The notes: generated from the letters alone by a model not told the origin. Positions 6,430 to 32,800 are shown, counted from the first letter of the stretch. The stretch is 64,000 nt of DNA from Blasia pusilla (GCA_050084515.1 CM114271.1:38750001-38814000), one strand, 5' to 3'. Program-made: numbers and translations.

Positions 6430-7348
<919 letters not shown>

Positions 7349-7664
7349 TGTCGTGCGCATACACATTGCTACACAACATACATCGTTGTCACCAAACACA
7401 CACACAAACACGCACAATCCCCTGCTAACTCATGGCATCCAAACAACGAGACAAGAAGTACCAAAATATCTTCAATCGCCCCTCTAGCTGGTGGTTAGGT
7501 CCCTCTAACTCCAGATAGCCATCTATCCCTACCTACCATCACATACATCTCTTGGACGCTAAGAGCAAGAAGGTCGGGTGCTCATGTGGCCCCATCCTTA
7601 GTCGCCTTCTTGTCATCCATATCACAGACACAAGTCGGAATGTATAACTACCTACTCTATGTAC

Positions 7665-9288
7665 ATCTGAGACACATCCATCATCCCTAAGGAACCCTAG
7701 TGAGAGGTGGTGTCAAACATGCCATATGCCATCCTCTCAAACACCCATCACATACTAGCATAGTGGCTGCACCATGGGCGGAACCACACAATATACACCG
7801 CAAGCTTGCAAAAACTATTGCTAAGCTTGGATCAACTCTATCGTCAATGCTTGGAAGATGACATGGCGCACAGTTACGCACATGGTCCTTCCAAACCATA
7901 CCATCGCGTCCCTCCAATAAGAGAACACTGGATGGCAAAAACTCACTCGCTCTCAAGATGGTGTGCCTTGCAGTCACATCCAACGTCGTAGGTGCCGTTT
8001 GCTACAAGTAAACATAATCTCCCAAATTAAACCTCTGGATAGTAGGTCGATAACCACCTCCCCGAATAGTCGCATACCTCAACGTATCCTGATGTTGCGC
8101 AATTGCCAAGTTCTCAAACGCCATGGGCATTACTATCCGAAATAACTCATCCCTCTGAGAAGATGCTCGCATCCATACATCAAGGTCATCAAGGTTCAAC
8201 ACCCCACCAGTATCTCGACGTATGGCCACAGGTAAATCTCGCTCTCGGCCATAAAGCAACAAGTACGGTGAGAAAGACGCTAAGGATGCCTGCCTGCTGA
8301 ATTTGTATCCCATCGCCAACCACGGAAACTGAAGGTCCCAATCTCCTAGGTGACCTCTCTGCAAGCCATACTTGCGTACTGCTCTCTTCATCGTGTGCAC
8401 AACCCGCTTTGCTAGTCCATCCACCTTAGGATGATCTCGCGTAGTAGTGCGGTGGTTGATCAGTGCTTGATCACACAAGGCCTGAAACTCCCCGTGGAAC
8501 TCTGTACCCTGGTCTACCAATACCTCAGTTGGTGCGCCGTAATGACTCAGGACTTTGTCAAGGAAGGCATAGGCTACTCCCTCACTCGCTTTGTCAGGCA
8601 ATGCAATCAACTCTATCCACTTCGAGAAGTGCTTGAAAAATCACCAACACATAACGACTATGGCGCTCCGTCAAAGGCAAAGGTCCGGCAAAATCCAAAC
8701 TCCATCTATAACCTAAACCCATGATCGGAAGTGGATGCAAGTATGGACTTAGAGCATTGAACAATGCTCGGACTTGATCATAACCCATGCCCGAGTCAGC
8801 GAGATACGACTGGAGCTCGTTGGCATGGTGAGAGTGATGAGGAGTTGGTGTCAGGATGGCATGGGTCAACCTATTTGGGCTTGTTGGCTATGGAGAGCCT
8901 GATTATTGAGACTTCGATGGCGAGGTCTGATGGAGAGTCCTTAGATCCAGAGGCCGGTGAGGAGATGACAGGTGGCCGAGATATTCACAACGATGGAGTG
9001 GTCTTGGAGTTCCTGCGTACTGGCAGCGTCGTCACACAGTGGGTGCTAGAGAGCGGGATCGGATCCTACAGCAAGCCAGACGATTCCCGTGGGAGGGCAC
9101 ACATGTGTTGCGAGTGTGAGAGGATGGTAGAGTGCGTGTAGTGCCTCATCCTTCGCAGAGAGCACGTTTGGTGCATCATGCCCACGAGGAGTTGGGTCAT
9201 TTTGGAGTGAAGCGGACGTACAGTTTGCTCCAGATTCAATATTGGTGGCGAGGCATACAGACTGACGTTCAACAATTTTTTGCCAGAT
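7665..9288 (-). pseudogene. Integrase plus C-terminal PHD finger of copy A (N-terminal part inverted)
   Basis: WSLDFAGPLP, VLVDQGTEF, HPKVDGLAKR, FSPYLLLYG; PHD CILC..MLVCDGC..WHMAC..WMCLRC. ~8781-9288 lies on the + strand. Confidence 0.9.
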
Positions 9289-9289
9289 G

Positions 9290-10565
9290 AAGTCATACTC
9301 CAGCAACAAAAGAGCCCACCTTGCAAGCTTCCATGTAAGCTTGTTGGACTCCATCAACCACTTAAGTGGTGTATGATCAATAATGATGGTAAAAGGATTG
9401 CCAAATAGATAACGTCTGAAACGTACGACAGCCCATACTATAGCCAAGCAGTCACCCTCATACGAGCTTTACTTCACCTCTACAGCGTTGTTCGAGCGAC
9501 CAGCATAAGGCACCATGAACTCTCTACCATCATTGTCATGCTGGGTGAGCATGGCTCCAAGCCCCAACATGGTCCAATCGGTATGCAATTGGAAAGGACG
9601 CCCCCTGATCGGTCTCCTCCATATGGTGCGGATGTCAATCTGTCCTTGAGCATCTGAAATGCTCTCTGTTGTTCATCCTCCCAATGCCACTCCTAATCCA
9701 CCTTGGTCATCAATTTTAGTGGATTCGCAATTGAACTGAAACCCTTGACGTACCGTCGATAGAAGTTCGCCAATCCCATGAATGCACGAACTCGACTCAC
9801 ATCTGTAGGGCGTGGAATGCGTGAAATAGCCTCTACCTTCGTCTATTGCACACTAAGGCCCCATAGATATATCATATAATCCAAGTACTCAATCTGGTCA
9901 TAGAAGAACTTGCACTTGCCTGGATGTAGCTTCAGCCTATGTACATGCAATCGTTGAAACACCTCCTCTAGATGTCACTCATGCTCCTCAACCGTGGCGT
10001 CAAAGACTACGATATCATCAATATAACATCTAGCAAAATCCACACCTACCAAGATCCTATCCATGACCCTCTGAAACTCAACCGAGGCGTTCTTTAACCC
10101 AAATGGTAAGAACCGCCACTGGTACAAACAATCCTTCCCGTGAGGATCGATGCCCCAAAATTCCGTCTTCTGCATGTCCTCCAATCTAATAGGCAACTGA
10201 TGGTATCTGGCTCGCAAATCCATTGAACTGAAGATCTTTGCATGCCCAATCGCATCAAAGATCTTCTCAGGGGTGGGCATAGCATACCTATCGGACTTTG
10301 TCTGCCGATTGATAGGTCGGTAATCTCCACACATCCTCCTATCCGTCTAGTTGCTATGCACATCCTTCTTGGCTGGCATGATAGTGGGACATGCATATTC
10401 TCCATGCAACATCTCCACTAGTCTTGCTCTAACCAAGTCCTGGCTCCTACTGTGAATCAAACCCCTCTCCATGTCACTATACCTGTAGGTTCGTCGGAAG
10501 ATTGACGTGTCACTCGAAAACTCAATGCGGATCCATGGACCATTTAGCGTACCCAAATTATACAT
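9290..10565 (-). pseudogene. Reverse transcriptase and RNase H of copy A
   Basis: RMCGDYRPIN, MDLRARYHQL, LPFGLKNA, YIDDIVVF; RNase H FQLHTDW..., LARWALLLLEYDF. Confidence 0.95.
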
Positions 10566-10989
10566 ACTAAATGCAAAATAACTCCTTTAACTCCTAAGGA
10601 ACTGGTGTATCCGACGCCGCTCTCCTGCTGTCAACTTATGCCCATATCTGGCTTCCAAGTCTCCATTGTGACTACGGTAGGACTCTCCGGCGTGGATGTT
10701 GGTGGTTGCTATGGTGCAACCCCGTTTCGCACAATAGAACTCTCATCTCCACGTGAAGTACCCGGAACCACGCTCCATGATGTGGCTATCATCTCCCGGC
10801 ATACCTGCAAAACATCCCAAGAAGTCCAAGGGTGTCCCTCCTGATCACCCCTGGTATGTCGATGTCCTCGGGTCTCGCCCCTAGCCACTGCCTCAACCGT
10901 CTCGGTAGGCATGGGGCTCACCAACGCAACTTTTTTGATCTATCACATCCTCAAACGACGTTGCTTACCTACTCCTAAGCTGAAAATCC

Positions 10990-11935
10990 ATGTCAAGCAA
11001 TTCAGGTCCATCGCTTGATCCAAGACATGACGTACTGATGCCTCCGTTAGTGATGGCACTGCCGTCACTCATGTGGGGAATCCCATCGCTCACTCTCACT
11101 CATCGGCGTTGGGCTCCACCAACCTCTATTCTTGGTACTCCCAAACCAAGTTAGGTCTGGCCTCCTTGAATGCATAAGAAGCGGGAAAACTCACCAATGT
11201 GGGAAAAGCTGCCCGTGGCCTGCCAACCTTGTTGACCACAGTCAACGGCGGTCGATCATCTAGCCTCATTGCCTGTGATTGACGGCCCAGATCCAATATA
11301 GAATCCACCAATAAATCGGAGGGACGCTCCACTCTCACATAAGCCCTCCGCAACACATCATGTGGCACCAAGTTGGTCCACATCTTTCTCCAACATACAC
11401 CCTCGAATCGCCCAAAGGTTCTAGAGCACATCGATGTGCACCAAGTTGGCGTGCATCTTTGGTAGACCAACTTGGTGCCTCATTCTCCAACATACACCCT
11501 CAAATCGCCCAAAATTGGCGATTCGAGGTGTATGTTGGAGAATGAGGCTGATGCTCTTGTAAATGTCGCAAGATCCGCATTATCTCCCAAAACAACCTGG
11601 ATCGAGTGTCAACTAATCCGCTACCTTGTCCAGCACTCGATTTTCCCTGACACGGCCAACCAGAAATGACCAAGTCTATGGTCCTTACCCGCTCCAAGTC
11701 ATGCGCCCCCAACAATAAAATGTCCCTCAGTAGGGAACTCTAGTAACCTTGAATGGCGGACGCAGACAACAAGTCGGGAAAACAGAGGCGTAACAATGCC
11801 ACATGGTGAAGTGAAGCGTGCCTTGCAACATCATCAATCTCTAGATATAGGTACTGTTGTACGCGCATTCCAGCATGCAAAACAGCAGCTAACCCAGTGC
11901 TCATCCCTCCAAAGAGATCCAACATCCGAATACCC
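10990..11935 (-). pseudogene. C5-cytosine DNA methyltransferase domain (DNMT3-like) in copy A pol
   Basis: Motif I MLDLFGGMSTG; motif II YLEID; motif IV DLVISGWPCQ; SRLFWEIMRIL; WTNL; motif IX ERAMGFP; motif X RHVLDQAMDLN. Motif VI is disrupted by a hairpin rearrangement. Confidence 0.9.
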
Positions 11936-12489
11936 TCCTTTGGGATGCACCACACAATCGGGGTGGTGTCCAAAGGGGTCATAGCATCACTCTTGCCTAC
12001 CTGGGGTTGCTCCAACCTGTCACATTCTAGTGCAAATGTCTTACTCCACACGGTCTTCATATGCTCAGTGGCTAAGCATCGAAGCTCCTTAGTCGAGCCC
12101 CAAAGCGGCACATGTCCTTCACGGACTGATGCGACTACCATGACATTCCTCTCCATAGAAATGTCAAGAACGGGAGTATCCTTTGCATGGAAATGTCCCT
12201 CTATCAAATCACTAGGCCAAGTGATGGCATTGCTCAATGCTGCTAAGATCACGATCTCTCCTGGCCGTTGCTCGATCACTGCACCTGTGAATCGAACGAG
12301 TAATGAGCTAAGGCGCCCATCACCTGACTGCCATCCTGGTCTGTAGGACGCTGACTCTTCCCAGTAATTCAGGGAAAACCCCATTCGCGTATGACATTGC
12401 TCCACCAACCAAGACATTATAGGACTCTGCATTAGTCACTATCGCCTTGGCTCACACCACGGACTCATCTGTAGGATGTCCGAGCGAAT

Positions 12490-12720
12490 CCTCACCACAA
12501 CCTCCTATCGGGTGATATACTGTGTGGTACTCGCTCTACCCAAGATGTTTGTATCTGGAATGGATAATGCTCGACATCAACTCTTGTCAAGCCTAATCCT
12601 TTGAATGACGCTTTCCCCAACATCAAGGGTTGCGCTCCTGAATCCAACAAGACGCAATGCGGACTAAAAGCTCTACCTCCAAGACTCACCAACTAGAAGA
12701 CCTCTCCTAAGTTATCCAGC
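12490..12720 (-). pseudogene. Retropepsin-type aspartic protease of copy A
   Basis: HCVLLDSGAQPLMLG active-site motif. Confidence 0.85.
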
Positions 12721-13262
12721 AACACAACACCAGGAGAAGCCATGGCACGCTCTATCGCAGGTCTAGTGGGCATCTCCGCCATCCTAGTAGTCGCAGCCTG
12801 CCATGAATCTGACGTGGACGGCCCGAGCATCCGCTCCAAGGGCAGGTCCATCACCTCCTCTACAATCACCTCTAAACGTGATGAAGGAACTCCAACTCCA
12901 CGCTCACATAATGTAGCTCAGCGGGCGTACCTCCCAACGTCATAACATCGGAAGTAGAGAATAAAGGAGCGTGGTAGAAAATGGTGGCCGCCCCCAAAAA
13001 CGTGCTCGACACATACCCCTCCTGAGCATCAGCAATAGGAGTCGTCGCACTCGCTTCTCCCATTACCCTCCGTGCCTACACACCAACAACATCACCAACC
13101 CTCCAGGAACTCTGATCAGAACCCATCGATGGGGTCCTCATCGCCTCGGAGAACGTGAAAGACTGAGGAAGCCTAGTCTGTTTCCTTGCTTCCCCTCGCT
13201 GTGGATCCAACTTTGCGGCTGCTCCATGTCGTACGCCTACTCTCCTTGAACATTAATCTTGT

Positions 13263-14269
13263 TGTTGCGGAAGGGTGCGTTCAGTAGGTCACGCTCTCAA
13301 CGCTGATCTACATCCAAACACACATTATGTTTAGTCGAATCTTGGATCAATCAGCGGGCTAACTTTCTGAGTTCTTGTCTCAGTCTCTCATCAAGCTCAA
13401 CCTCCCTTGTTTCTCGGTATACAACACGGGCAAGTCTCGAAAGACTCGGGACAGACTTTCTGGTCGGTTCAGGAACCTCAAACGGCATTTTGCACCTGGG
13501 GGTTCCAACTGTCCAATGGACATCCAATGAGTCTCTAACCGACACACGCACAAAGTGAATCTTGGGTCAGAATCCAAGCGTGGCGTACAAAGCCCACTCC
13601 CTTGGATCAGGTTTGGGTTTCGAGTTCCAACGCCAGACTCCCATTCCATCCCTAGCCTCTAAGACGCCGTTTGGTGCTCAAAGTGGGGATTTGTGTTCCA
13701 AGACATCTTGGAGAGACTCCTCCCTTACTTGTACTTCTAGGAATCTCCGCGGTTCCCTACATTTAGGGAAAGACACCCGGGCCTCTCCAATTGGCCCTCA
13801 ACCCGATTGCTCTCCCAATCCTTTTCGGCCAATATCTCCGTTTATACTTATGCGTTTTCTAAGATCTTTGGTGCGTTGGAAGCGTCTCAAGATAAGATTT
13901 CCAACACATCCTTATTTGTTGCAAATTCATCTTGGAGCTAAACCTTATGGTCCAAAACACAGTAAAATTCCCCAAGCGCTAGTAATGTTCCAAAACTGGT
14001 TCTCACCTCTTTGGCAACCAACCTTGCAATACTCGACTCATCTCAAGTCTTGGCTCGCATTTGGTCAAGGTTTCTTGGTTGCAACCACTAACGCATAAAA
14101 CCCACAACTCTATTCCGCCTTTTGTCTCTTGGACTTTTCCAAGAGACCTTTCCAAACGCCTCTCCAAAGCGCGAACATCGCAATGTGAGTCCACTTGAGT
14201 TCTGATGTTCCGCTTGGCACCTATTTGGTGTTGTTTGCTTATGAGGGTCACGATACTCCACCCGTCACA
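13263..14269 (-). repeat. LTR-like segment Y (~1 kb, TGTGAC...CAACA) inside copy A
   Basis: TG...CA ends; absent at this position in copy B; homologous to ~18800-19414. No TSD seen. Confidence 0.55.
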
Positions 14270-14639
14270 ACTGCAGTAGCCTCCATCTAGGCAACCACGC
14301 ATATCCAACCAGGATCCTCCATATCTCTGGCTGCTCCATATAATGTCGATGCCACGGATGCGGCATCGGGTAATCTCAATGCCATAGTGGCAATGTGCTC
14401 ATGTAGCTGATGTATCTGAGCAGCCATCCTAGCCTCACGCCTTGGCGTCTCCCTCGACGCGTCGATGTGGTGGGACTCTACCTCCTCCACATGCAGCTCC
14501 ACCACCATTTCGGGAAACTCTAGCTCCTCGTCCCCCAACGAGACCACTTGGTGCACGATCTCTAGGCCTACCCGGACCCGCTACTTGCTCTGGTGCCCTC
14601 TCTGGCCCTCGGTCCGAACATAACTTAGCATGTAAACTG

Positions 14640-15886
14640 AAACACCTGGCGCGTGTATGACCATAACTCTAACAAAAGTCACACTGATAACCTCTTGGTA
14701 CAGCACCATCTCCTCCTGCATGCTAAGGCACACGTCCATGATCCTGACGAGTGCAATCACACTGATGATGGGCTCCACCACATGACCAACAAGTAATTGT
14801 AGGCAGCTGCTACTGAGCGGTATATGAAGGCGCAGGTCTCTGTGGCACGGCCTCCCGATATCCTCCTTGAGCTCGTGGTGCCACAGTCGACCTATCTCAG
14901 AGTCCATGTTGCTGCACATGTGGTGTAGAAAATCGTGACTACTCTCGCCCAGAACCCATGGTGGCTACACTCTCCTCCGCCATGTTGCGCTCAATGTTCT
15001 TGACGTTCCTAAAAACATCTCTCAACGTAGGGAAGGTCTTCATAAGAAGCACCCCCTCCCGCACACATGTCCGTAGGGTCTGGTCGAGCATGGCGTACCA
15101 TGACTGGATAGCCTGAGCCTCTGTCACCCCCTGAGTGACGTTGATCAACCCGCGCAAGCGAGTGTAAGCCTCACGTAAACTCTTACCCGAGCGCCTGTGG
15201 AAGTCATGGATGCTCCGCAACTTCTCCGTCCGTACCTCCTGGTAGCTCACCCTCAACTCAACGTAGAACTCAACCACGGGATTGAACCTGGGATGAACCC
15301 GACTAGATGGTGCAATTGCTCCAGTGCGAGTGACCCCTCCTAAAACATCACTAGTGGAAGAGGAAGTAGCCTTTCTTGACTCCTCCTCCTCATCTGGGAA
15401 TGGCTCCGTCCATGACACATAGTGTGGTTCATAGTAGAGTCGCCATGCTTCAATCTCCTGGGCATATCTGTGGGAAAACTCATGGTAATTGTCCATGGGC
15501 GCCCCTTCTAAATGCTGGAAAATACCATTCCATGCTATGAACGGGTTGAACTCTCTAGAGTTCCTAGCTCGTTTTGAGTCACACCAACTCCTAAACTCCG
15601 CAATGAAGTCGTGTAGCTCTAAAGTGCCTACAGCACACGAAAACCTACGCGGTCCTCTACCCCGGTCGTCCATCTCGTACGCCCAACTAGTAGGACCACT
15701 CAATGTGTACGGTGGATCACTAACACACTCCTCTATACGCTCCTCCTTGTCTGAAAACGACAAAGAAGGAGATCGAGGTGGTCTTTCACGTGGAGACCCC
15801 CAAAACCTTGCACCACTCTGGCTAAACCCTCTAGAGCTACTCTCAGGTCCACTACCTTGCCTCTCAAAATCCTGAAAGGACGCCAT
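14640..15886 (-). pseudogene. Gag of copy A with two zinc knuckles
   Basis: 315-aa ORF 14939-15886 with a retrotransposon-gag-like core (RSGKSLREAYTRLRGL). Downstream CWSCGGAHHQCDC and CDFC*SYGHTRARC at ~14640-14795. Confidence 0.8.
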
Positions 15887-18799
15887 GATAGCCCTTGTGC
15901 CCCTCTCACATGATCACTCTCAATCTTGCAAGCAATCTCTCAATCACTCAAACTAAACATGCGACACTCAATCTACACTCTCTCAATGAGACGTGTGCTA
16001 TGTGGCAACAAGCAACGTGGTGCGGCAAATCAACTAATCTATCGTCTCATCGACAAACCATCCTCAGCTTTGGATATACCACATAGGTGTATGTCCCATA
16101 AACCCATACATCCTCGATGCTCCTAGCATCAGCACAAAACCCAATATCCCAAATAACTTCCCAATACCCGAAAATCCCTCACACGTGCAGGGTAAGAGAC
16201 CAGAATGGGTAACCTGACAATAATGTCGATGTTGCTCCTCGGCAACTACAAATCTGGACCCCAACTTGGTCGTGGAGACAACTCCTCCAATCAGCAAGTC
16301 GTACTCGTCTTGTATTGACGCTGCTCAAACCTCCTCGATGTGCGGTACATGTCCAACGGTACGGTACGATACCGGCGGCACGGAATGGCTACCAACGGCA
16401 CGACACTCAAGAATGAGGTGCAGCATTCGGCGGCATACCCTCCTCAATCAGCACTCGGCGGCATACCCTCCTCACACGCTCTGCTCCTAAGTGAAGGAGC
16501 GGCTCCGCGATCGAGACGGTGCGGTGCGGCCACGAGCGGCATGGCGTGACAATCGCCGGCGCCTTACGGCTACGGGCGTCACGGCACAGTACTCAATCGT
16601 CATCGAGCGGCTACCAATCACAACATAGAAACATGAAATAAAAACTCAAACACCATAACCCGAGGTCACCTACCATTACTGGTTGATGACGAAATTGCGA
16701 TCACAGTGGCGGCCAAACCAAGGTACATGATGGCGGCGCAAATCAGACAATCAACTTTGGTTGTGGAAGACCCTCCACTCCATAATGGCGGCAATGGCAA
16801 CCAAAGGGTGGACAACGGTCGAATGCGGCTCTAAGAAACGCTAGGCGGCAGCGGCGGTCGACGGTGGACGGTGGACCGCTGATGGTGACGGCCGACCATT
16901 GATGGTGATGGTTGACCGTCAATGGCAGACTATTGATGGTAACTATGACGGCGACAGCCGCCAATGGCATGGCAACTGGTTTAGGGTTTGAACAATTTAA
17001 CTCTAAAAATTGCCTAGCAATGGCAATTTTGCAAGATTGACCATAACATTTTGCTCACAACTCCAAATTTAGCACCATTTGTTGCCCAACATGCATATCT
17101 TCATGATCTACGACGGCAGAAAAAAATATTTTGAATAAAACATTTGAGTAAAAACTAACAGGGAGTTTTGTTAAGCCCAATGTCTCTTTCTCTTATACAA
17201 AATTTGGCAGCGCTTTCGCGCTGATTTCTCCCAACAAAAATGTAAAACCTGTGAAAATACAAATCAGAAAGCTACATGGTGATCCCAAGAGCACCGGCAT
17301 GGGGCAACTTGCCCCCATACTCAATCCCTATAAAAAATTGGGCAGCGCTTTTGCGCGCCACTCTTCCACACAAAAAATCGGCAAAGGAAACATCACAAGT
17401 AAGCAGCTCTTGCTCCGGTGAGCACTTCCATGAACCGCTGAATGGGGAATAGGATCCCCAACGTGCAAAACCAAGGAGTGACCAGCAAGCTCCCCCATGA
17501 AGCTCTGTCACTCACTCATTCTCTCTTTGTAAAATAAGATCCAATCTCTCTCAAAACACCATAGTTCTCACCTGTGTGCACTCTCACATATCTCTCTCAA
17601 TGTCAAACCAAATCCACTCTCCTAATAAGAGGCTTGGGTTACACACACAAAGCAAGCAAGACCATAGCTTCGCCGTCTCATGCCAAGAGGTTCAACAAAA
17701 AGAGAATGAGCTCTCAAGCTCTCTCTCCTTGAGGTATATCTGTCCCCTCTCCCAAGCTCTCTCCATGATAACCTATGCTCCCAAGTCACCTCCTTGGCTC
17801 TTGACCTCATGTAGGAAGTTAAGAGCCACTTACCAAAAATATAAATTCGATTATGTACTCAAAATGGTACTTATCTAAAATAGTAAGTTCCTCAATATGG
17901 CTCCAAATGAGCCGAAACGAAGGGAAAACCTGCTCTCTCAGGTTTCTCAAGGCCTCAGCAGGTCATCCTCGACCTATTGAGCATGTCCTCCACTCCTCAC
18001 AAAGGCGCTCTACTAGATCTTACCAATCTATCCTAAAAGATATGACACACTTGATGACGATCGAGTATCGTGTAGTGACGCTCGTATCCACAATGCGTCG
18101 TGCCTGCTCATGGCCGCACCGCACCGTCTCAATCACGAGCCGCATCCTCACTTTGGAGCATGGCATATGTTTCTGATTGCGGAGGATATGCCACTAAGTG
18201 CTTCATCCCACCATCGAGTGTTGTGTCGCTTGTAGCCATTCCGTGCTCCGAGTGTCGTACCGTACTGCTGGACTCGCTCCGCACATCGAGGAGATTTGAG
18301 CATCGTCAATACGAGAGGAGTATGACTTACAGATTTGAGGAGTTTGTCTTCACAATCGAGTTGGGGTTGAGCTTTATAGTTGGTGAGGAGTGACATTGAC
18401 ATTATTAAGGTTACCCATTCTGATCTTTTGCCCTACAGTGTGATGGAATTCCGAGTATTTTGCAGTTATTTGGGATATTGGGTTTGGTGTGGATGTAGAG
18501 CGCATCATGGATGTATGGGTTTAGGGGACATAGACCTGTATGGGATATTCACACTTGAGGGTATGTTCTATTGATGAGACAATAGATCTGTCAATTTTCC
18601 ACAGCACGCCGCTTGTTGCTGCACAGTACACGTCTCAGTGAAAGGGAGTGTAGGCTGAATGCCGCATGTTTGGTTCGGTGATTGAGGGATTATTCATGAG
18701 ATTGAGACTGATCGCATGGGAGGGGCACGAGGATCATCATGGCATCCTTTTGGTACTTTGAGAGGCAAGGTGGTGGACGTGAAAGTAGCTTTAGAGGTT

Positions 18800-19445
18800 T
18801 AGGCTCCAACGCATGAGAGATCTTAGAAAATGCACAAGGATCAGTTGAGATATTGGCCAAAAATTACTATGAGAGCAGTTGGATTGAGGGCCAATTTCAG
18901 GGGCCCGATTGTCTTTCCCTAAAGTAAGGGTGAAGACATGGATCCCCAAAAGAACTAGTAAGGGGGAGTGTCTCCAACGATTCTTGGAACACGAACCTCA
19001 CTTTGAGTGCCAAACAACATCTTAAGGGCACGGGATGGAACAAGACTTTGGCGTTGGAACTCGAAACCCAAACCTGATCCAAGGGAATGGATTTCGGAAG
19101 CCACACTCCAACCAGAGATTCATTTTCGTGACTCACAGCTAGATACTCATTGGATATCTATTGGACAGTTTGAACCACGAGGCATGCAAGCCCCATTTGA
19201 GGTTCCTCAACCGACTTGAAATTTTGTCCCAAGTCTTCAAAGACTTGGCTATGTTGTAAATTGTGAAACTAGGAAGATTGAGCTTGATGAGAGGCCGAAT
19301 CGAGAACTCGGATAGTTTGAATGATGATAGACCTAGATCCGAATAATGTGAGTGCATGTTTGGGTGCAGATCAAGATTGAGAGTGTGTCCTACTGGACGT
19401 ACGCTTCCGCAACATTAATGATTTACGTTCAAGGAGAGTAGGCAC
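18800..19445 (+). repeat. Partial segment Y replacing part of gag in copy B
   Basis: Reverse-complement match to ~13235-13885; ends acgcttccgcaaca...gttcaaggagagtaggc. Confidence 0.75.
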
Positions 19446-22094
19446 ATGACAATCGGGGTAGAGGACCGCGTAGGTTTCTAGGTGCTTTAGGTACCATAGA
19501 GTTACAAGACTTCATCGCAGAGTTTAGAAGTTGGTGTGATTCACAATGGGCTAGGAACTCAAGATAGTTCAACCCGTTTATAGCATGGACCAGCATTTTG
19601 ACAAGGCACCCATGGACGAATACCATGAGTTTTCTCAGAGATATGCCCATGAGATTGAGGCATGGAGACTCTACTATGACCCACACTATGTGTCCATGAC
19701 TAAGCCATTTCCACACGAGGAGGCGGAGTTAGGAGAGGCTACTTCCTCTTCCATCATTGATGAGTTAGGAGGGGTGAGTCCGACTAGGGCAGTTGCATCG
19801 TCCAGTCGGGTTCGTCATAGGTTCAACCTCGTAGTTGAGTTCTTTGGGGAGTTGCGGATGAGCTATTGGGGGTATGGACCGAGAATTTATAGAGCATCCA
19901 CGACTTCCATAGGCTCTTGGGTGAGAGTTTGCTTGAGGCCTGCACTTGCTTGCGTCATTTGATTAGTGTCACTTAAGGGGTGACAAAGTCCCAAGCTATC
20001 CAAGCATAGTACGCGATGCTCGACCGAGACATGCGAAAACTGGTGAGGGATGGGGTACTTCTAATGCGCACCTCACCTACGTTGAAAGATATTTTTGAGA
20101 CTGCGGAGAATATTGAGCGCAATATGGCTAAGGAGAGCGTAGTAGCCATGGGTTCTGTGCGAGGGCAGTCACAATTCGCTCCATCGTTAGTGGAGAAATG
20201 TGGATTTTGGGAGAGGATTGTGGCACCACGAGCTCAAAGAGGATATCGAGAGCCCGTGGCATAGCGACTTGCACCATCATATGCGGCTTAGCAGCAATCG
20301 CCAAGGATTATTTATTGGGCATGTAGTGGAGCCCATGACCAACGCGATTGCACCCGTTACGATAGTGGAGGCGTGCCTCAGCATGGAGGAGATGGGTTTG
20401 CACCAGAAGTTTATGAGTGTTACCATCATCAAAGGTACGGTCATATACGAGCCAGGTGTTTCAGTCTACTCCTGAGTTACGCCCGCAGCGAGGGCGAGAG
20501 AGGGCATCAAAGAAAGTTTTTGGTCTGGGTGGACCTAGAGGTCGTGTACTAGGTGGTCATGTTGGGGGATGAGGAGTTGGTTTTGCCTGAGTGGAGTTTC
20601 CCGTAGAGGAGGTTGAAGTCCACCACGTAGACACTTTGAGGGAGACGTCGGACGTGAGGCTGGGATATCTCCTCACATACATCAATTACAACTGCAAATT
20701 GTTGCTATGGCATTGAGGTTATCCAATGTCAGATCAGTGGCGTCGACGTCTTATAGGGAAGCTAGGGACATGAAGGATCTTGGTTGGATGTGCGCGGTTG
20801 CACAAACGGAGACAGACGCTAGAGTTACTTGTGGAGCAACTGCAGATCTAGAGTTGGATACGTAGAGAGGGGAGTCCAGGAAACAGAATGACTTCTTCAG
20901 TCTTTTAGATTCTCCGAGGCGATGAGGACCCCATCGATCGGTCTTGATCAGATTTCATGGAGGATTGATGTTGTGGGTGTACAGGCACGGAGGGTGCGAT
21001 GGAAGAAGTGAGTGCGACGACTCCTATTGCAGGTGCTCAAGTGGAGCTTGTGTCAAGCACGTTGTTGGGGGCGGCCACTACGATATACTGCGCACCATTG
21101 TTTTCTACTTTCAATGTTACGACGTTGGGAGGTATACTGATCGAGGTTTCAGGCTGGCCGCTACGCTATGTGAACATGGAGTTGGTGTTCCTCCGTCACG
21201 ATCAGAGGTGATTGGAGAGGAGGTGGTGGACCTGGCCTTGGAGCCTATGCTCGGGCCGTCCAAATTATATTCATGGCAAGCTACGGTTGCTAGGATGGCA
21301 GAGATGCACGCTAGACCCGCGATCGAGCATGCCATGGTATCGCGAGATGTTGTGTTGTTGGATAACTAGGGAGAGGTCTTCCAGTTGGTGAGTCCATGAG
21401 GCACATTGTTTTTTCCGATGCACGTCTTGTTGGATTTAGGAGGGCAATCCTTGATGTTGGGGAAGGGGGCATTTACAAGATTGGGCCTGACGAGGGCTGA
21501 CATGGAGTATTGCCCATTCATAATACATATATCCTTGGGTTGAGCGAGTATGATGCAATTTATCACCCGACATGAGGTTGTGGTGAGGATTAGCCCGGGA
21601 CATACATCAGATGAGTCCATGGTGCGATCCAAGTCGATAGTGACCAATGCTGAGTCCTATGACGTCGTGGTTGGAGGAGTATGCATCCTACAGACCAAGA
21701 TGGTAGTCTGGTCATGGTCGACTTAGCTCATTACCCGTTCGATTCACGAGTGGAGTGATCGAGAGATGGCCAATAGAGATGGCAATATTAATTGTATTCA
21801 GCAGTGCCATCACGTGGCCTACTGATGTGATTAAGGGGCATGACCATGCAAAGGACACACCCGCACCTAACACTTCTAGGGAGAGGAGTGTTATGCTAGT
21901 CGCATCATTCCATGGAGGAGAGGTGCCGTTGTGGGGCTCGATTAAGGAGCTTCCACGCTTGCCCAATAAGCACGTGCAGACGGCGTGGAGTGAGACGTTT
22001 GCACCAGAGAGCGATGGGTCAGAGGAACCCAAGGTAGCCGAGAGTGCTACGATGACATCCTTGGATACCACACCGATTGTGTGGCACATTCCAG

Positions 22095-23055
22095 AGGAGG
22101 ATATTCGGGTGTCGGATCTCTTTGGAGGGATCGGCACTACGTTAGCTGCTATTTTGGAGGCACGAGTATGTGCGCAAAAATATTTGTATATTGAGCTTGA
22201 TGAGGTTGCAAGGCACGTTTCACTACAACATGTGGCATAGTTACGCCTCCATTTCCCGACTTGTTGTGTGCGTCCGCCGTATAGGGATACCATAGTTCCC
22301 TAACGAGGGATATTTCATTACTGGGAGCGCAAGACTTGGAGCGGGTAGGGACCATTGATTTGGTTATTGTTGGTTGGCGATGTCAGGACCAATCGAGTCC
22401 TGGATGAGATAGTGGATTAGTTGACACTTGCTCCATGTTATTTTGGGAGATGATGAGGATCTTGCAACACTTGTAGGAGCATCAAATCAATCTTGTTCTA
22501 TTGCTTACATCTTGAAGAATGTAACAATTTTGGGCGATTCGACGTCACGGCTGGTGACGAGTGCACATCTAATGCCCACATGGATCAGCCCAGAAGTGTT
22601 GTTGGATGCGGTGATTGTATGTTCACAAGCTCATCGTCCACGTCTTTGGTGAACCAACTTGGTGCCCCATGAGGTCTTGCATATGCCCTATGCAAGACCT
22701 CATGGGAGCGCCCCTCCCATTTTTGGGTGGATTCTATTCTCAACCCAAGTCATCGATCAGAGGTAGTGAGGCACAATGATCAAACGTCATTCTCTATGGT
22801 CAACAAAATTTGCATGCCACGGGCAGCCTTTCCCACATTTGTGTGTTTTTCCGCTTCATGTGCATATAAGGAAGATGAACTTGGCTTGGTTTGGGATGAC
22901 TAGGTATAGCGGTTGGTGGAGCCCCACGTCATTGAGCGAGAGTGAATGATGGGATTTCCCACAAGAGTGACAGGATTACCCTCACTATTAGAGGCATGAT
23001 AATAACATGTCTTGGGTTAAGCGATAGACTTGAACTGATTGACATGGATGGTCAT
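22095..23055 (+). pseudogene. C5-cytosine DNA methyltransferase domain (DNMT3-like) in copy B pol
   Basis: VSDLFGGIGT (I), YIELD (II), DLVIVGWRCQ (IV), LFWEMMRIL, YILKNV (VI), LLDA..SQAHRPRLW*TNL (VIII), MGFP (IX), HVLG*AIDLN (X). Confidence 0.9.
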
Positions 23056-24485
23056 CTTAGGAGTAGTTGAGCAACAGGTCATAACAGTTGCGTTGGTGAG
23101 CCCCACGCCTACCAAAATGGTTGAGGTAGTGGTTGGGGGCTAGATCTGAGGAGATCGACACTCCAGGGGTGATCGGGAGAGATACCCTTGGACTTCCTGG
23201 GATATTTTGCAAGTACGTCAAGAGATGGTAGCCACAACATCGAGCGTGGTTTCGGATATTGCACATGGAGAAGATGAGATTTTGCAATTGGTTGCACGTT
23301 AGCAATCAAGCTATGTTATTCACAATGGGATTGTACCATAATAACTATCGATACCAGCCTTGGAGAGTCCTACCCTAGTCACAATGAAGACGTGGGAGTC
23401 AGATATGGGCCCTTAGTTGACAGGAGGAGAGCGGCGCCAGATAGATTAGTTCTTTTTGGAGTTATAGGAGTTATTTTGCATTTAGCATACATGATTTGGG
23501 TACGTTGAAGGGTCCAAGGATCCGCATTGGGTTGTCTAGCGACACACCAATCTTTGGACAACCTTACAAGTACAATGATATGAAGAGGGCTCTAATTCAA
23601 TGTAGGAGCCAAGACTTGGTTGGAGTAGGACGAGTGCAGATGTCGTATGGAGAGTATGCATCTGCCACTGTAATGCCCGCCAAGAAGGATGTGCATGGCA
23701 ACTGGAGGGATAGGCGGATGTGTGGAGATTACCAACCTATCAATCGGTGGACGAAGTCCAATAGGTATGCCATGCCCATTCCTAAGGAGACCTTTGATGT
23801 TATTGGGCATGCAAAGGTCTTCTATTTGTTGGATCTTCAAGCCAGATACCATAAGTTGCCTATCCTCTAATCTGATAGGCAGCTGATGGTATCCGACTTT
23901 CAGATTGGAGGATAGGCAAAAGATTACATTTTGGGGCATCAATCCTCACGGGAAGGATGGCTTGTACGAGTGGCGTTTCTTACCATTTGGGTTAAAGAAC
24001 GCTCCGGCTGAGTTTTGAGAGAGTCATAGATAAGATCTTGGCAGGTCTTGATTTTGCTAGGTGTCATATTGATGACATCGTAGCCTTTAGCGCCATGGTT
24101 GACGAGCATGAGCGACATTTGGAGGAGGTGTTTCAACGATTGCAATTACATGGGCTAACCCTACATCCAAGCAAGTGCAAGTTCTTCTATAACCAGATTA
24201 AGTACTTGGGTCATAGAATATACCTAGGTAGCCTTGGTGTGTAGCAGACGAAGGTAGAGGCTATTTCACGCATTACATACCCAAAAAATATGAGTTGAGT
24301 ACTTGCATTCATGGGATTGGCAAAATTTGATCGACGGTACATCAAGGATATCAATTTGATTGCAAAGTCGTTAACCTCGCTCATCAAGGTGGATCAAGAG
24401 TGGCACTTGGGGATGAATGGGAGAGAGCATTTCAACTGCTCAAGGTCAGGTTGATGTCTGCGCCCATATTGAGGAGACCAATCAG

Positions 24486-24726
24486 CAAGGTTGCATGTGG
24501 ACAAAGTCCATGTCCGTGGACTTATGTCTGTTCCATACTCCCCCATTTCTTCCTCCCTCCACCTCCACTCCCTCCTTCCTCATTGCTCTTATCATCCTTG
24601 CCTTGCCTTCCATCATGGACTAAAAGTGTGGGTCCTACCTCTTGGAACTCATGTCCGTGTACATGTCCAGACTTGTCCGTCCATGTCTATCCTAAGGAAG
24701 GACTTGTCCGTTTTTGTGCAACCATG
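24486..24726. mobile_element. hAT-type MITE (241 bp) inserted in copy B
   Basis: TIRs CAAGGTTGCA / TGCAACCATG; 8-bp TSD CCAATCAG (24478-24485) / CCAATGAG (24727-24734). It interrupts the RRPI|RGRPF frame. Confidence 0.85.
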
Positions 24727-24977
24727 CCAATGAGGGGGCGTCCTTTCCAATTGCATACAGATTGGAGCATGTTGGCGCTTGGAGTGGTGCTCATCCAACA
24801 TGACGATGAGGGTAGAGAGTTTGTGGTGGCTTACGCTAGCAGCTTGAACAATGTTGTAGAGACAAATTATAGCTCGTATGAGGAGGAGTGTTTGGTTGCA
24901 GTGTGGGCTATCATGCATTTCAGGTGTTACTTATTTGGCAACCCCTTTACCATCATTACTGTTCATTAGCCACTTAA

Positions 24978-25318
24978 TGTAACTCTCCAACTCCCGAAAC
25001 CACTCTAGAGTTGGTCAAAGCAAGAATAGCCTTCAAGGCCTCTCCTCTTCCTTTATATACTCAGAGATAGGTACAATGAAGACAAAGTAGCTCTTCCTAT
25101 CCTTATGCCACGTGTCTTAATCTCATAGCATGAGAGGATCTCTTTTCCCCTCTAATATTCCGACCTCATCCTTATCTTCCTTTTCACCAACTTTTGGCCC
25201 CACTCTCATCTTTATCTCATGTATCTTGCCTTTTTTCTCTTTTTGGTTGATTTTTTCCCACGTATGCGTCGCATGTCATAGATTATAACTTAACTATTAC
25301 TAACAAAGGATGGTTACA
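24978..25318. mobile_element. Solo LTR (341 bp) inserted in RNase H of copy B
   Basis: TGTAAC...GTTACA ends, perfect 5-bp TSD CTTAA, internal TATA-like tttatata. Confidence 0.9.
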
Positions 25319-27392
25319 CTTAAGTGGTTGATGGAGTCCCGAAAACTTATAGGGAAGCTTGCGAGGTGGGTTCTATTGTTGGAGGAGTATGATTTCCAAG
25401 TGGTGCATAGACCTAGGAGGCTCAACCAAGATGTAGATGGTTTGAGTTGTAACCCATGCCTGAGTGAGCAAGATGCAATTGGAGCTCAGTGGTATGGAGA
25501 GAGTGATGAGAAGTTGGTGCCAAGATGGCACGCGTCAGCCTATTTGGGCTTGTTGGCTATGGATAGCCATAGTGTTGAGACTTCGATGGCGAGGTGTGTG
25601 GGAGAGTCCTTAGATCCAGAGGTCGGTGAGGAGGCAACAGGTGGCTGAGATATTCATGAGAATATAGCAGTCTTTGTGTACCTATGTATTGGAAATATCG
25701 TGAGCACATTAATTGCTAGCTAGAGAGCGAGATTGGATCCTATAGCAAGCCAAACGATTCCGATGGGAGGAGACACATATATTGCAAGTTTGGGAGGATG
25801 GTAGAGTATGTGTAATGCCTTATCTTTCACATAGAGCATGTTTGGTGAAGCATGCTTACAAGGAGTTGGGTCATTTTGGAGTGGAGTGGATGTACAACTT
25901 GCTCTAGATACAATATTGGTGGCGAGGCATGCAGATTGACGTTTAGGAATTTGTTGCTATGTGCATGATGTGTGATCGGGTCCAAGCATCCTTCAATGCT
26001 CTTACTCTACAACTGCATCCATTTCTGATCATGGATTTAGGTTCTAGATGGATTTTGGACTTTTCAAGACGTTTACCTTTGACGGAGCGCCATAGTCGTT
26101 ATGTGTTGGTGATGGTCGAACACTTCTCGAAGTGGATAGAGTTGGTTATATTTCTTGAAAAAGTGAGTGAGGGAGTAGCATATGCCTTTCTAGAGCAAAT
26201 GTTGAGTCATTACGGTGCAACAGCTGAGGTGTTGATAGACCAGGGTATGGAGTTTTACGTGGAGTTTCAGTCCTTGAATGATCATACACTTATCAACCAC
26301 TACACCACTTCGCGGGATCATCCTAAGACGGATGGATTAGTGGAGAGGATTGTGCCAACAATGAAGAGAGGTTTGCGCAAGTATGGTTTCCTAGGAGAAT
26401 GGGACCTCCAATTTTTGTGGTTCGCGATGGGATACAAATTCGGCAGGCAAGCCTCCTTAACGTCTTTCTCACCATCCTTGTTGCTTTATGGCCAAGAGCC
26501 AGACTTACTTGCGGCCATTTGTCAAGATGTTATGAGATGTTGAATCTTGATGACCCTGATGTATGGATGGGAGTATGTTCTTAGAGGGCTGGGTTATTTC
26601 GGAAAGTAATGTCCATGACGTTTGAGAACCTGGCGATTGCGGAACATCGAGATACTTTGAGGTATGCGACTATTCGGGGAGGTGATTATCGACCTACTAT
26701 CCGGAGGTTTCATCAAGGAGGCTATGTCTACTCGCAACAGACGGCACCCACAATTTTGGATGTGAGTGCAAGGCACACCATCTGGAGAGTGCGTAAGATT
26801 TTACCATATGGTGTTCTTTTATTGGAGGGACGTGATGGTATGGTTTGGAAGGACCATTTGCATAATTTTGCGTCATGTCATCTTCTCAACATTGACAGTA
26901 CATTTGATCCGAGCTAAGCAGTAGTTCTTGCATGCTTACAATGTATGTTGTGTGGTTCCGCCCGTGGTGCAGCCACTACGTTAGTCTATGATGGATGTTT
27001 GAGAGGATGGCATATGGCATGCTTGACGCCATCTCTCACTAGGGTTTCTCAGGAACAATATATGTGCCCTAGATGTACATAGAGTAGATAGGCATATATT
27101 CCGACTTGTGTCTGTGATATGGATGACAAGAAGGCGACTACAAATGGGACCACATGAGCACCCAACCTTTTTGCTCTTAGTGTCCTAGAGATGTATATCA
27201 TGGTAGGTAGGGATAGATGGCTATCTAGCGTTAGAGGGATCCAACCACCAACTAGGTGGGCGATTGGAGATATCTTGGCACTTCTCGTCTTGTTGTGTGG
27301 ATTCCATGAGTTGAAATGGGATCGTGTTTGTTTGTATGTGCATTTGGTGATAACGATGTACGTTGTGTAGCGATGTGTATGTGCATGACAAC

Positions 27393-28017
27393 TATCACGT
27401 CTGTTAGGATAGATCAACAAGATCTAGTAGAGATCCTTCAAAGATAGTAGAGGACAATCCCTAAAGGTCAAGCATGACTTGTTGAGGCCATGGGAAACCT
27501 GAGAGAGCAAGTTTCTCCTTCATTTCGGCTCATTTGGAGCTATATTGAGAAACTTATTATTTCGGGCAAGTTACGATTTTGTATGGTTGACTTTCCACTT
27601 TGGGAAGTGGCCCTTGACCTGGTATAGTAGGTCAAGAGCCAAGGAGTTGATCTGGGAGCATAGGTTATCGTGGAGAGAGGTTGGGAGAGAAAAGGGGGTA
27701 TACCTCTAAGAGAGAGAAAGCATGAGCTCTCTTTGTTGAACCTTTTAGCATGAGGCGGCGGAACTATGGTCATCCTTGCCTTGTATGTGTAATCCAAGCC
27801 TCTCATTAAGAGAATGGGTTTGGTTTTACATATGAGAGAGAGAGTGCACACATTGTGAGACCTTGTTGTGAGTGAATTCCACTTGATCTAATTGAAGATA
27901 TTTTGGTATTTCTCATCTCGTTGTGTGGATTTCATGAATTAACATGGGATCCTGTGTGTTTGTATCCGCATTCGATGACAACGATGTATGTTATGAAATG
28001 ATATATATGCGTACAAA
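27393..28017 (+). mobile_element. Short derivative of the same family: 5' terminal ~480 bp joined to 3' terminal ~125 bp
   Basis: 27393-27865 matches the 5' end of A (18047 to 17570); 27890-28017 repeats 27262-27390. Starts 2 bp after the 3' end of B. Confidence 0.75.
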
Positions 28018-29885: not shown

Positions 29886-32800
29886 TGTCGTGCGCATACA
29901 CATCGCTACACAACATACATCGTTATCACCGAACACACACACAAACACGCATGATCCCATGCTAACTCATGGCATCCAAACAACGAGACAAGAAGTACTA
30001 AAATATCTCCAATCGCCCCTCCTAGCTGGTGGTTAGGTCCCTCTAACTCCAGATAGCCCTCTATCCCTACCTACCACAGCATACATCTCTAGGACGCTAA
30101 GAGCAGAAAGGCCGGGCGCTCATGTGGCCCCATCGTTAGTCGCCTTCATGTCATCCATGTCAGTGAAAAAGTCGGAATCAAAACCTACCTAGTATCTCCT
30201 CTATGTACATCTGGGACACATCCATTGTCCCCGAGGAACCCTAGTGAGAGGTGGCGTCAAACATGCCATATGCCAACCTCTCGAACATCCATCACAGAAT
30301 AGCATCGTGGCCGCACCACGGGCAGAACCACACAACATACAACGCAAGCCTGAAGGAACTACTGCTAAGCTCGGATCTACTGTATCATCAATGTTAGGAA
30401 GGTGACATGGCGCACAATTACACACATGGTCCTTCCATACCATACCATCGCATCCCTCCAGCAAGAGAACACCGGATGGCAAAACGTCACGCACTCCCAA
30501 GATAGTGTGCCTGCAGTCACATCCAACGTCGTTGGTGCCGTCTGCTGCAAGTAGACATAATCTCCCTTATGAAACCTCCAGATAGTTGGTCGATAACCAC
30601 CATCCCGAATAGTCGCATACCTCAACGTATCACGATGCCGCGCAATCGCCAAGTTCTCGAACGCCATAGGCATCACTCTCCGAAACAACTCAGCCCTCTG
30701 AGAACATGGTCGTATCCACAAATCTGGGTCATCAAGGTCCAACACCTCACCAGCATCTCGACGAATGGCCACAAGTAAATTTGGCTCTCGGCCATAAAGT
30801 AGCAAGTACGGTGAAAAAGACGCTACAGATGCCTACCTGCTAAATCTGTATCCCATCGCCAACCAGGGAAACTGGAGGTTCCAATCTCCTAGCTAACCTC
30901 TCTGCAAGCCATACTTGTGTAAACCCCTCTTCACCGTCTTCACAACTCTCTCCGCTAATCCATCCGCCTCAAGATGATCTCGCGAAGTCGTGCGGTGGTC
31001 GATTTGGGCCTGATCACACTAGGCTTGAAACTCACCGTGAAACTTGGTACCCTGGTCTGACAACACCTCAGCCGGTGCGCCATAATGACTCAAGACTTTG
31101 TCAAGGAAGGCATAGGCTACTCACTCACTCACTTTGTCAGGCAATGCAACCAACTCGATCCACTTCGAGAAGTGCTCGACCATCACCAACACATAACGAC
31201 TGTGACGCTCCGTCAAAGGCAAAGGTCTTGCAAAATCCAAAATCCATCTATACCCTAAGCCCATGATCGGTAATGGATGCAACTGTGGAGTTGAAACATT
31301 GAACGATGGTTGAACCCGATCATACACCATGCACCTGGCAACAAACTATTGAACGTCAATCTGCATGCCTCGCCACCAATACTGAATTTGGAGCAAGCTG
31401 TACGTCCGCTTCATCCCAAAGTGACCCAACTCCTCGTGGGCATGCTACACTAGTCGTGCTCTCTGCGAAGGATGCGGCACTACGCGTACTCTTCCATCCT
31501 CTAAAATCCTCAAAACATGTGTCCCCTCCCAACGGAACCGTCTGGCCCGCTATAGGATCCGATCCCGCTCTCTAGCATCCACGGTGCTCAAAACGCTGCC
31601 AGTACAAAGATACTCCAAGACTACTCCATCATCATGAATATCTCGGCCACTTGTCGTCTCCTCAATGGCCTCGGGGTCCAAGGACTCTCCAGTAGACCTC
31701 ACTATCAAAGTCTCCACATTCTGGCTCTCCATAGCCAACATGCCTAAATAGGTTGACGCGTGCCATCTTGGCACTGACTCCTCATCACTCTCTCCATGCC
31801 ATCGAGCTCAAGTCGCATCTCGCTGACTCGGGCATGGGTTACGACTCAACCCATATGCATCCTCGTTGAGCGTCCCAGGTTTATGTACCACCTGAAAATC
31901 ATACTCTTGCAACAACATAGCCCATCTCGCAAGCTTCCTTGTAAGCTTGTCGGATGATCAGCGATGATGGTAAAGGGGTTGCCAAATAAGTAACACGTGA
32001 AATGCGCGACAGCCCACACCGCAGCCAAGCACTCACCCTCATACGAGTTGTACTTTGCCTCTGCAACGTTGTTCGAGCGGCTAGCGTAAGCCACCACGAA
32101 CTCTCTACCCTCATCATCATGTTGGGTGTGCACCGCTCCAAGCCCTAACATGCTCCAATCTGTGTGCAACTGGAAAGGATGCCCCCTGATCGGTCTCCTC
32201 AAGACGGGCGCGGACGTCAACCTCTCCTTGAGCAACTGAAATGCTTGCTCTTGCTTATCCCCCTAGTGCCACTCGTGATCCACCTTGGTCAGCAAGGTCA
32301 GCGGCTTCGCAATCGAACTGAATCCCTTGACGTACCGCCGATAGAAGTTTGCCAATCCCATGAATGCGCAAACACGGCTCACATCTGTAGGGCGTGGAAT
32401 GCGTGAGATAGCCTCTACCTTTGTCTTCTGAACACCAAGGCCCCCTGGATATATCATATGACCCAAGTACCCAAGTACTCAATCTGGTTGTAGAAGAACT
32501 TGCACTTGGCAAGTTCAGCCCATGTAATTGCAATCGTCAAAACACCTCCTCTAGATGTCGGTCATGCTTCTCAACTGTGGCGCTAAAGACTACGATGCCA
32601 TCAATATAACACCTAGCAAAATCCAGACCAGCCAAGATCCTATCCATGACCCTCTAAAACTCAGCCGGGGCGTTCTTTAACCCAAATGGTAAGAACCGCC
32701 ACTGGTACAAACAATCCTTCCCGTGAGGATCGATGCCCCAAAATGCCGTCTTCTGCCTGTCCTCCAATCTGATAGGCAGTTGATGGTATCCGGCTCGCAA

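Follow-up and report, generated by a model that had tools for sequence, protein, structure and literature searches.

Short and long forms of a bryophyte Ty3/Gypsy-type family with split direct repeats, and a proposal for where its integrase cuts

In this study, we followed up a stretch of 64,000 nucleotides from Blasia pusilla (GCA_050084515.1, CM114271.1:38750001-38814000; the window, with positions counted from its first letter), in which a preliminary description had pointed to a Ty3/Gypsy-like element, copy A, with integrase-type ends and a 4-bp target-site duplication but no long terminal repeats (LTRs), and had taken the lack of repeats for a trait of its family that might call for a non-canonical route of replication. 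We found that copy A is an integrase-made insertion without terminal repeats, and that "no LTRs" is not a family trait: the full form has split direct repeats. With R for the 5'-terminal segment of the element, T for the 3'-terminal segment and nn for a 2-nt spacer, the long form (F2) reads R-body-T-nn-R-T and the short form (F1) R-body-T. On balance, we favor with modest confidence the view that copy A is a short form of a Ty3/Gypsy-type family whose complete, self-sufficient form is R-body-T-nn-R-T, produced by the mechanism proposed below. The non-canonical point looks to be where the integrase cuts, not how the cDNA is synthesized.

Stop-to-stop frames and Pfam matches place the coding strand of copy A on the minus strand, hence its 5' end at 18047; on the plus strand the copy starts with TGTC (7349-7352) and ends with GACA (18044-18047). 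It is nested, in opposite orientation, in an older copy, H, which is ~76% identical to A in a self-comparison of the window. The insertion point in H is matched by A's own stretch around 16607, which is uninterrupted there and has a single (C)ACT: in the alignment of this empty site, A reads ...AGCCGCT followed by CGATGACG..., and H reads ...AGCCACT, then copy A, then CACTTGATGACG.... Because this paralogous empty site is available, the borders of copy A and its 4-bp duplication are exact to the base, and the TGTC/GACA ends and CACT/CACT flanks first described for it stand.

7349-18047, minus strand: copy A, a degenerate Gypsy/DNMT/PHD element of the short form (F1, R-body-T), delimited by the empty site and Pfam matches
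7345-7348, read on the plus strand: left copy of the target-site duplication CACT
18048-18051: right copy of the target-site duplication CACT
17530-18047, minus strand: R of A, 518 bp, 5'-terminal, starting TGTCAT, delimited by the R-to-T joint 7475->17530 in reads and by alignment with the second R behind H
7349-7475, minus strand: T of A, 127 bp, 3'-terminal, ending CACGACA, delimited by read joints and alignment

The statement that A's leader and trailer share no direct repeat held as well. Local alignment of the first 2200 nt of A with its last 700 nt scored 13, against a mean of 13.2 for 100 shuffles (standard deviation, 1.4; maximum, 17), and a repeat search of the window returned no direct repeat linking both ends of the copy. 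The inverted ends of the family are imperfect and only ~7 bp long. Likewise confirmed is the common 3' stop GCA(C/T)GACA, shared by A, B (29886) and H (27390) and lying ~340 bp past the PHD finger. As before, no tRNA-type primer-binding site (PBS) came to light: the element has no match at ≤2 mismatches to the plant initiator-tRNA PBS motif.

The self-comparison of the window also returned a second R-T unit, R2 and T2, which stands 2 bp behind H, had been overlooked, and removes the lack of repeats as a family trait. The 3' end of H, ...GCATGACA at 27390, is followed by AC and then by an R joined directly to a T, and the sequence behind H aligns end to end with A's first 518 nt plus its last 127 nt. 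The layout of H is body-T-nn-R-T, its 5' ~450 bp being gone at a (GA)n tract. This microsatellite of ~100 bp (6433-6533), at the truncation point, appears from its sequence to be an expansion of a short GAGAGA within R. The leader, which had been described as common to A and B, is common to A and H only; B is truncated at ~33661 and has no leader in the window.

6554-7348 and 18052-27390, plus strand: copy H, older than A, which it hosts and which divides it in two (self-comparison)
27387-27396, plus strand: junction J, made of the T end GACA, AC and the R start TATC (a mutated TGTC), with the same junction in related loci and in reads
27393-27891, plus strand: second R (R2) behind H, by end-to-end alignment with R of A
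27892-28016, plus strand: second T (T2) behind H, its end decayed, by alignment
29886-33661, minus strand: copy B, 3' 3.8 kb only, its T running directly into unrelated flank

The window's integrase open reading frame (ORF) matches proteins labeled as coming from Calypogeia, Marchantia, Riccia and Sphagnum, as well as ORFs of ~1040 aa that span reverse transcriptase (RT), RNase H, integrase and PHD finger. We turned to related moss and liverwort loci in metagenome contigs, where a scan with an alignment of five ORFs gave 462 pattern stretches, 253 of which encode a relative. R, T, the leader and the end of pol were mapped in the 80 loci kept, and the best-sampled, moss-type family was classified into F2 and F1 wherever the T1 end and enough downstream sequence were present (41 loci, the other 39 being too short or of other families). 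Merging loci with the same flank left 30 distinct places, of which 15 are F2, 13 are F1, and 2 carry T-nn-R and then something else; T2 in the F2 loci measures from 29 nt to more than 300 nt.

A 4-bp duplication around the whole of F2 is perfect in six of eight places (L012 GGTC, L018 ATGT, L024 TGAC, L034 CCAC, L040 GGTA, L043 CCAT) and agrees in three of four bases in the other two. Around F1, six places gave three perfect duplications (L011, L022 and L062), one with three of four bases and two without any. Altogether 9 of 14 duplications are perfect, and TG...CA ends with a 4-bp duplication fit Ty3/Gypsy. These data show that F1 and F2 both end in TGTC...GACA and that both were inserted by integrase as units. 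Because the duplications flank the composite, F2 is one inserted piece, and its R-T unit is no second insertion. We therefore give almost no credence to the idea that a separate small element, landing by chance beside a full copy, accounts for the R-T unit behind H and for units like it: such units do resemble deletion derivatives that keep both ends, but this order, 2-nt spacer included, is seen again in 15 distinct places as well as three further families, and a 4-bp duplication lies around the composite and around neither part alone.

Two identical long terminal repeats at the very ends were not found in these loci; the long form begins with R and ends with T, each present twice. The counter-evidence that the preliminary description had named, a direct repeat at both ends or copies with ordinary LTR pairs, thus turned up by half, in that repeat pairs exist but are not ordinary LTR pairs. 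Within a copy, R1 and R2 are 83-92% identical and T1 and T2 87-95%, against between-copy means of 81% and 89%; as far as sequence comparison goes, this excess is weakly consistent with the proposed mechanism. The internal junction between T, nn and R forms a palindrome, GACA-RY-TGTC. Junction J is found in 26 rows over four families, with nn being purine-pyrimidine in 23 of them. A closer family, L, with ~70% nucleotide identity to A, has the same parts: the junction of its locus L079 reads ...CACAACA-GC-TGTCATGACC..., L049 ends ...CGCACGACA and then passes into flank, and L057 ends R-T.

Two side observations concern this junction. At 3342-3880 of L079, a second R (~360 nt) is followed by an inverted copy of R's first ~170 nt instead of T; the turning point of the inverted copy is a CAAAGAAC/GTTCTTTG palindrome, and next to the flank the copy once more ends in ...GTCATGACA, as would be expected if a self-primer from R was copied. 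A fourth, more distant family has its junction at 3756 of L005, reading ...CAGCACGACA-GC-TGTCATGCC....

The family is also visible in reads of the species. We mapped one DNA run (~2 Gb of reads) and three stranded RNA runs (X18-X20), all under the same species label, on positions 7300-18100 at 80% likeness; these are short reads of many diverged copies, and the RNA picture is drawn from coarse depth bins and joint counts. With both mate directions summed, DNA depth is ~3000 over pol, ~3600 over the first half of R and 950-1500 over the leader. The T-nn-R junction, in reads that leave off at 18047 and resume at 7348-7351, is present in 441 DNA reads and in 44, 59 and 49 RNA reads per run, nearly all of them sense to the element; the junction is thus abundant in the DNA and transcribed in sense. 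In element orientation, nn in the junction DNA reads is AC in 154, GC in 87, GT in 69 and AT in 40. The R-to-T joint (17530 to 7471-7476) is found in 753 DNA reads, 546 of them at one exact point, and in RNA only 15, 8 and 11 times. In run X19, the ratio of RNA to DNA depth is ~0.01 over leader and gag, 0.04 over RT, 0.07-0.08 over integrase, T and the first half of R; in the second half of R it drops to 0.044. Most simply, these values mean that sense transcription continues past T and the junction into a second R, where most transcripts would end. Form proportions calculated from loose-end agreement values in the reads gave inconsistent numbers. As a separate observation, differences between the reads and copy A amount to 1216 C>T, 1204 G>A, 426 A>G and 466 T>C, the C>T and G>A excess being the pattern that deamination of methylated cytosines throughout the family would leave.

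Repeats and joints alone served to place the R end and the T start, independently of any priming signal, and both borders coincide with PBS-like and polypurine tract (PPT)-like signals.

17515-17529, minus strand: PBS-like site of the self-priming type, the first 15 nt past R
17695-17709, minus strand: R positions 339-353, complement of the PBS-like site and putative RNA 5' end
7476-7489, minus strand: G-rich, PPT-like tract directly before T

In the window, the PBS-like site pairs with R 339-353 at 14 of 15 positions, which none of 2000 shuffles of R reaches, and an ATATA lies ~30 nt upstream of R 339-353. In the moss locus L012, the first 12 nt past R pair at all 12 positions with R 165-176 (again 0 of 2000 shuffles), and PBS-like pairing of at least 10 nt, with G-T pairs allowed, is found in 12 of 15 moss loci. 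A G-rich tract stands right before T(1) in three families (...GAGGGGCGA, ...AGGGGGGCGAG and ...TGGGGGGGG); it is T, not R, that the PPT-like G-run precedes. A PBS-like site and a PPT-like tract at the borders argue for ordinary reverse transcription, and against both Ginger-like DNA mobilization and an obligatory circular or tandem template. A family without any terminal redundancy, moving as DNA through its integrase in the Ginger manner or copied from circular or tandem templates, is accordingly very improbable in our view. Copy A and 13 related places without a repeat speak for it, as do the head-to-tail junction DNA reads, which could come from circles or tandems; on the other side, copies with repeats are as common as F1 and went in whole, relatives have kept RT, RNase H and gag intact, transcription is in sense, and repeat borders at PBS- and PPT-like sites would be meaningless for a DNA transposon. 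Of the non-canonical replication first suggested, what remains is that A has integrase-type ends and no terminal redundancy and that a head-to-tail junction exists in DNA and RNA; what falls away is the repeat-less family, given its split repeats and its PBS- and PPT-like sites.

In the mechanism that we favor, the RNA would start inside R1 (here at about R position 339) and end inside R2; an RNA of that extent is terminally redundant in the ordinary way. Self-priming of the minus strand would take place at the site adjoining the R end, as in Tf1, and the plus strand would begin at the G-rich tract adjoining T, so that the cDNA would consist of a body between two LTRs of the composition T-nn-R (LTR-star). 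The integrase would use not the LTR tips but the palindrome GACA-RY-TGTC inside LTR-star, where TGTC and GACA sit back to back. Cutting both LTR-stars would give R-body-T (F1), and copy A would be such a copy; F1 would be sterile, because the second R is lost and no terminally redundant RNA is possible. Cutting both faces of the left LTR-star alone and joining the natural cDNA tips would give R-body-T-nn-R-T (F2), whose R-to-T joint would be that of a U5 end with a U3 start, as in a two-LTR circle. F2 would then be the only form both integrable and fertile, and some F1 copies may instead come from F2 by recombination between T and T. That the integrase acts on an inherited internal palindromic att site rather than on the cDNA tips, making the integrated copy a circular permutation of the cDNA, we put forward tentatively and with somewhat less than even confidence.

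Several points weigh against this mechanism. It would predict a permuted form unless the left LTR-star is preferred, and T upstream of R1 (R-T-nn-R-body-T) occurs in none of the 15 distinct loci that hold R1; a bias to the left LTR-star might arise if the right one is single-stranded until plus-strand synthesis finishes. In family L, the bases past R pair at 7 of 12 positions only, a value reached by 1923 of 2000 shuffles, and the complement of 10 nt occupies the last positions of R. What precedes T is a run of G rather than a long polypurine tract. Junction reads could equally derive from full tandems or circles, and some RNA reads hold the R-to-T joint, so that a minority of transcripts carries T2. 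Two F1 loci have no duplication. Finally, the cDNA ends, the transcription start and the poly(A) site are putative, the picture of the RNA being one of short-read depth bins and joint counts. Two related candidates were dropped: random cutting of a circle at one or the other of two equal junctions, for which the permuted form should not be missing from all 15 loci, and a splice as the source of the R-to-T joint, which lacks GT...AG borders in both the moss family and family L.

It is possible, though in our judgment rather unlikely, that integration always yields the long form, which unequal recombination between T1 and T2 later shortened to give A and the other short copies, the target duplication being kept as in solo LTRs. 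T1 and T2 are direct repeats of 127-177 bp, a perfect duplication is kept in A as well as in three of six F1 loci, and the excess of R-to-T joints over J joints in the DNA reads (753 against 441) is what would be expected if recombination between R and R leaves R-T remnants. However, F1 is nearly as common as F2 (13 against 15 places) despite the short T, and no sequence scar separates the two origins of F1.

We consider improbable, and distinctly so, a regeneration of ends in the manner of DIRS and Ngaro elements, in which the RNA would lack both tips, the junction of T, nn and R would serve both as template and as the priming point for rebuilding the two tips, F2 would be copied as such, and F1 would reflect a skipped template switch. 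The order A1-body-B1-A2-B2 is the split-direct-repeat layout of PAT and Ngaro, the junction is present in RNA, a few RNA reads hold the R-to-T joint, and the junction motif is kept across four families. Yet the start of R is not conserved between families past ~7 nt, leaving no common primer site at J (a priming site at J was dropped as a candidate for the same lack of conservation), most transcripts appear to stop short of T2, and the significant PBS-like pairing at the R end and the G-run before T fit ordinary priming and explain the position of the R-to-T border.

The coding content of copy A agrees with a Gypsy element: the pol order RT, RNase H, integrase is present on the minus strand (RVT_1, RT_RNaseH, rve), between a leader at 18047-15914 and a trailer at 7689-7349 in element orientation.

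14942-15913, minus strand: gag-like ORF, 324 aa, by eye like the N-terminus of the Sphagnum protein P0027
11743-12435, minus strand: ORF with the start of a DNMT-like domain (motif I region), matched by BLASTP with the DNMT-RT ORF of L012 (E = 4e-15)
9978-10346, minus strand: reverse transcriptase, RVT_1 E = 1.6e-14
9049-9468, minus strand: RT_RNaseH, by Pfam
8005-8640, minus strand: integrase core, rve E = 5e-8
7690-8001, minus strand: PHD finger, C-terminus of pol, PHD E = 2.7e-7
8782-9288: inversion private to A, ~505 bp, flipping the H2C2 zinc-finger region of the integrase, by self-comparison and read joints
13222-14255: insertion private to A, 1034 bp, a small element having TGTCGT...CACGATA as its ends and CTCCA as its 5-bp duplication

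The gene set of the family comprises gag, protease, a DNMT3-like methyltransferase, RT, RNase H, a DDE integrase and a PHD finger. In the intact relatives P0008, a transcriptome ORF, and L012, matches to RVT_1 and RNase H are accompanied by Integrase_H2C2 and rve; gag, RT and RNase H are intact among relatives, P0008 included. The gag-like ORF has no Pfam match. For the methyltransferase, the L012 ORF at 8693-11233 has a DNA_methylase match in Pfam (E = 2e-9) N-terminal to RVT_1, and Pfam matches of this kind are absent in the window ORF 11743-12435 and in P0020, P0024 and P0027; the identification rests on the L012 match, weak PDB and NCBIfam matches and pairwise alignment, the window copy being decayed. 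No Phage_integrase match, the sign of a tyrosine recombinase, was found by Pfam in 10 window ORFs or 7 L012 ORFs, and among solved structures the best match of the family integrase is foamy virus integrase (E = 9e-23). As an observation in its own right, the Dnmt3-like C5 methyltransferase fused ahead of RT has homologues labeled as coming from Calypogeia, Marchantia, Sphagnum, Closterium and Klebsormidium, with weaker ones in chlorophytes; the spread of a Dnmt3-like pol domain in land plants is seemingly undescribed in searchable papers.

The two private lesions of A are resolved by reads: opposite-strand joints between 8781/8790 and 9286/9293 show that the majority of genomic copies carry the other orientation of the inverted segment, and 314 DNA reads skip the 1034-bp insertion. 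By its sequence, this insertion appears to be a small non-autonomous relative whose ends are of the same type. A part of it, ~650 bp long, recurs elsewhere in copy H (18805-19451), ending ...CACATGACA. Other repeats of the window, judged by eye, are a minus-strand helicase/Helitron-like ORF at 2292-2777 and a 368-aa ORF with LINE-type reverse-transcriptase-like motifs at 37391-38497.

The layout is already known from a related alga, and the family is a further member of a little-studied kind. In the portion of the source consulted, KnitGypsy-Dnmt3 from Klebsormidium nitens is described as having the repeat structure of a DIRS element with Gypsy domains (Fig. 4c legend), and as having acquired Dnmt3 in the K. 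nitens lineage only (de Mendoza et al. 2018, PMC5890265). As far as that portion allows comparison, the present family shares with it both the Gypsy domain set with a Dnmt3-type methyltransferase inside pol and the DIRS-like repeat layout that goes with it; unlike the algal element, it is hosted by bryophytes. A Klebsormidium protein, P0076, a candidate KnitGypsy-Dnmt3 copy, is colinear with the moss DNMT-RT ORF (E = 3e-34). The main text of PMC5890265 has no occurrence of PHD, and the text examined, supplements excepted, gives for KnitGypsy-Dnmt3 no target duplications, palindromic junction, PBS or PPT positions, bryophyte distribution, junction transcription or sterile short form. A literature search found "KnitGypsy" in one paper only and returned no paper on this bryophyte family or on DNMT3 Gypsy elements in bryophytes.

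The repeat order also resembles that of other elements. PAT-like and Ngaro elements of the DIRS order, as far as the excerpts consulted describe them, have split direct repeats (A1-body-B1-A2-B2) and a tyrosine recombinase, and integration from circles is assumed for them. The family here has the same order, including the internal junction of both ends (H with R2-T2, 15 related places and read joints), but it differs in its DDE integrase, TG...CA ends and 4-bp duplications, with no recombinase found; PAT-like and Ngaro elements are not known to leave a target duplication. The junction of a two-LTR circle was reportedly proposed as an integrase substrate by Panganiban and Temin in 1984, and Delelis and colleagues are said to have found that foamy virus and HIV integrases cleave the palindromic junction. 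As in such circles, a palindrome of two att ends that would permit a staggered integrase cut is present here; unlike in circles, it sits in mid-LTR from the outset and is passed on by RNA instead of being made by ligation, and its cleavage is what our mechanism would predict. Ginger DNA transposons have a Gypsy-like integrase, TGT... ends and short duplications, together with long inverted repeats and no gag or RT, whereas the present family has RT, RNase H, gag, imperfect inverted ends of ~7 bp and sense transcripts. Like self-priming Gypsy elements of the Tf1/sushi type, the family has a sequence adjoining the repeat that pairs with a site inside the repeat, not with a tRNA; compared by features rather than by phylogeny, those elements have ordinary LTR pairs and a chromodomain, and this family has permuted repeats and a PHD finger. 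Self-priming of the Tf1 type has been predicted for the moss Tcn1 clade, according to the portion consulted of Neumann et al. (2019, PMC6317226).

Taken as they stand, these copies have no LTR pair at their ends, and annotation tools based on LTR pairs should miss or mis-delimit the family, abundant as it is (~3000-fold read depth over pol in ~2 Gb of reads); neither "PHD" nor "Marchantia" occurs in the consulted portion of the plant LTR survey of Neumann et al. Gypsy elements that combine DIRS-like repeats with a DNA methyltransferase of their own, published once so far, have their range extended from a charophyte alga to liverworts and mosses, and there are weaker protein matches in Closterium and chlorophytes, which together with the bryophyte and algal hosts point to an old streptophyte lineage rather than a one-off. 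If the reading with an internal att site is true, LTR-based annotation would be expected to miss a family of thousands of copies, the left part of the left LTR would end up at the far right of the integrated copy, and the family would represent, in natural and inherited form, the old route of integration at circle junctions, with a DDE-integrase element having converged on the repeat layout of tyrosine-recombinase (DIRS-like) elements. The border signals and the duplications around whole units lead to a concrete and testable proposal, in which reverse transcription is ordinary and integration then takes place at an internal palindrome; it bears on how an integrase chooses its ends and on the origin of DIRS-like layouts.

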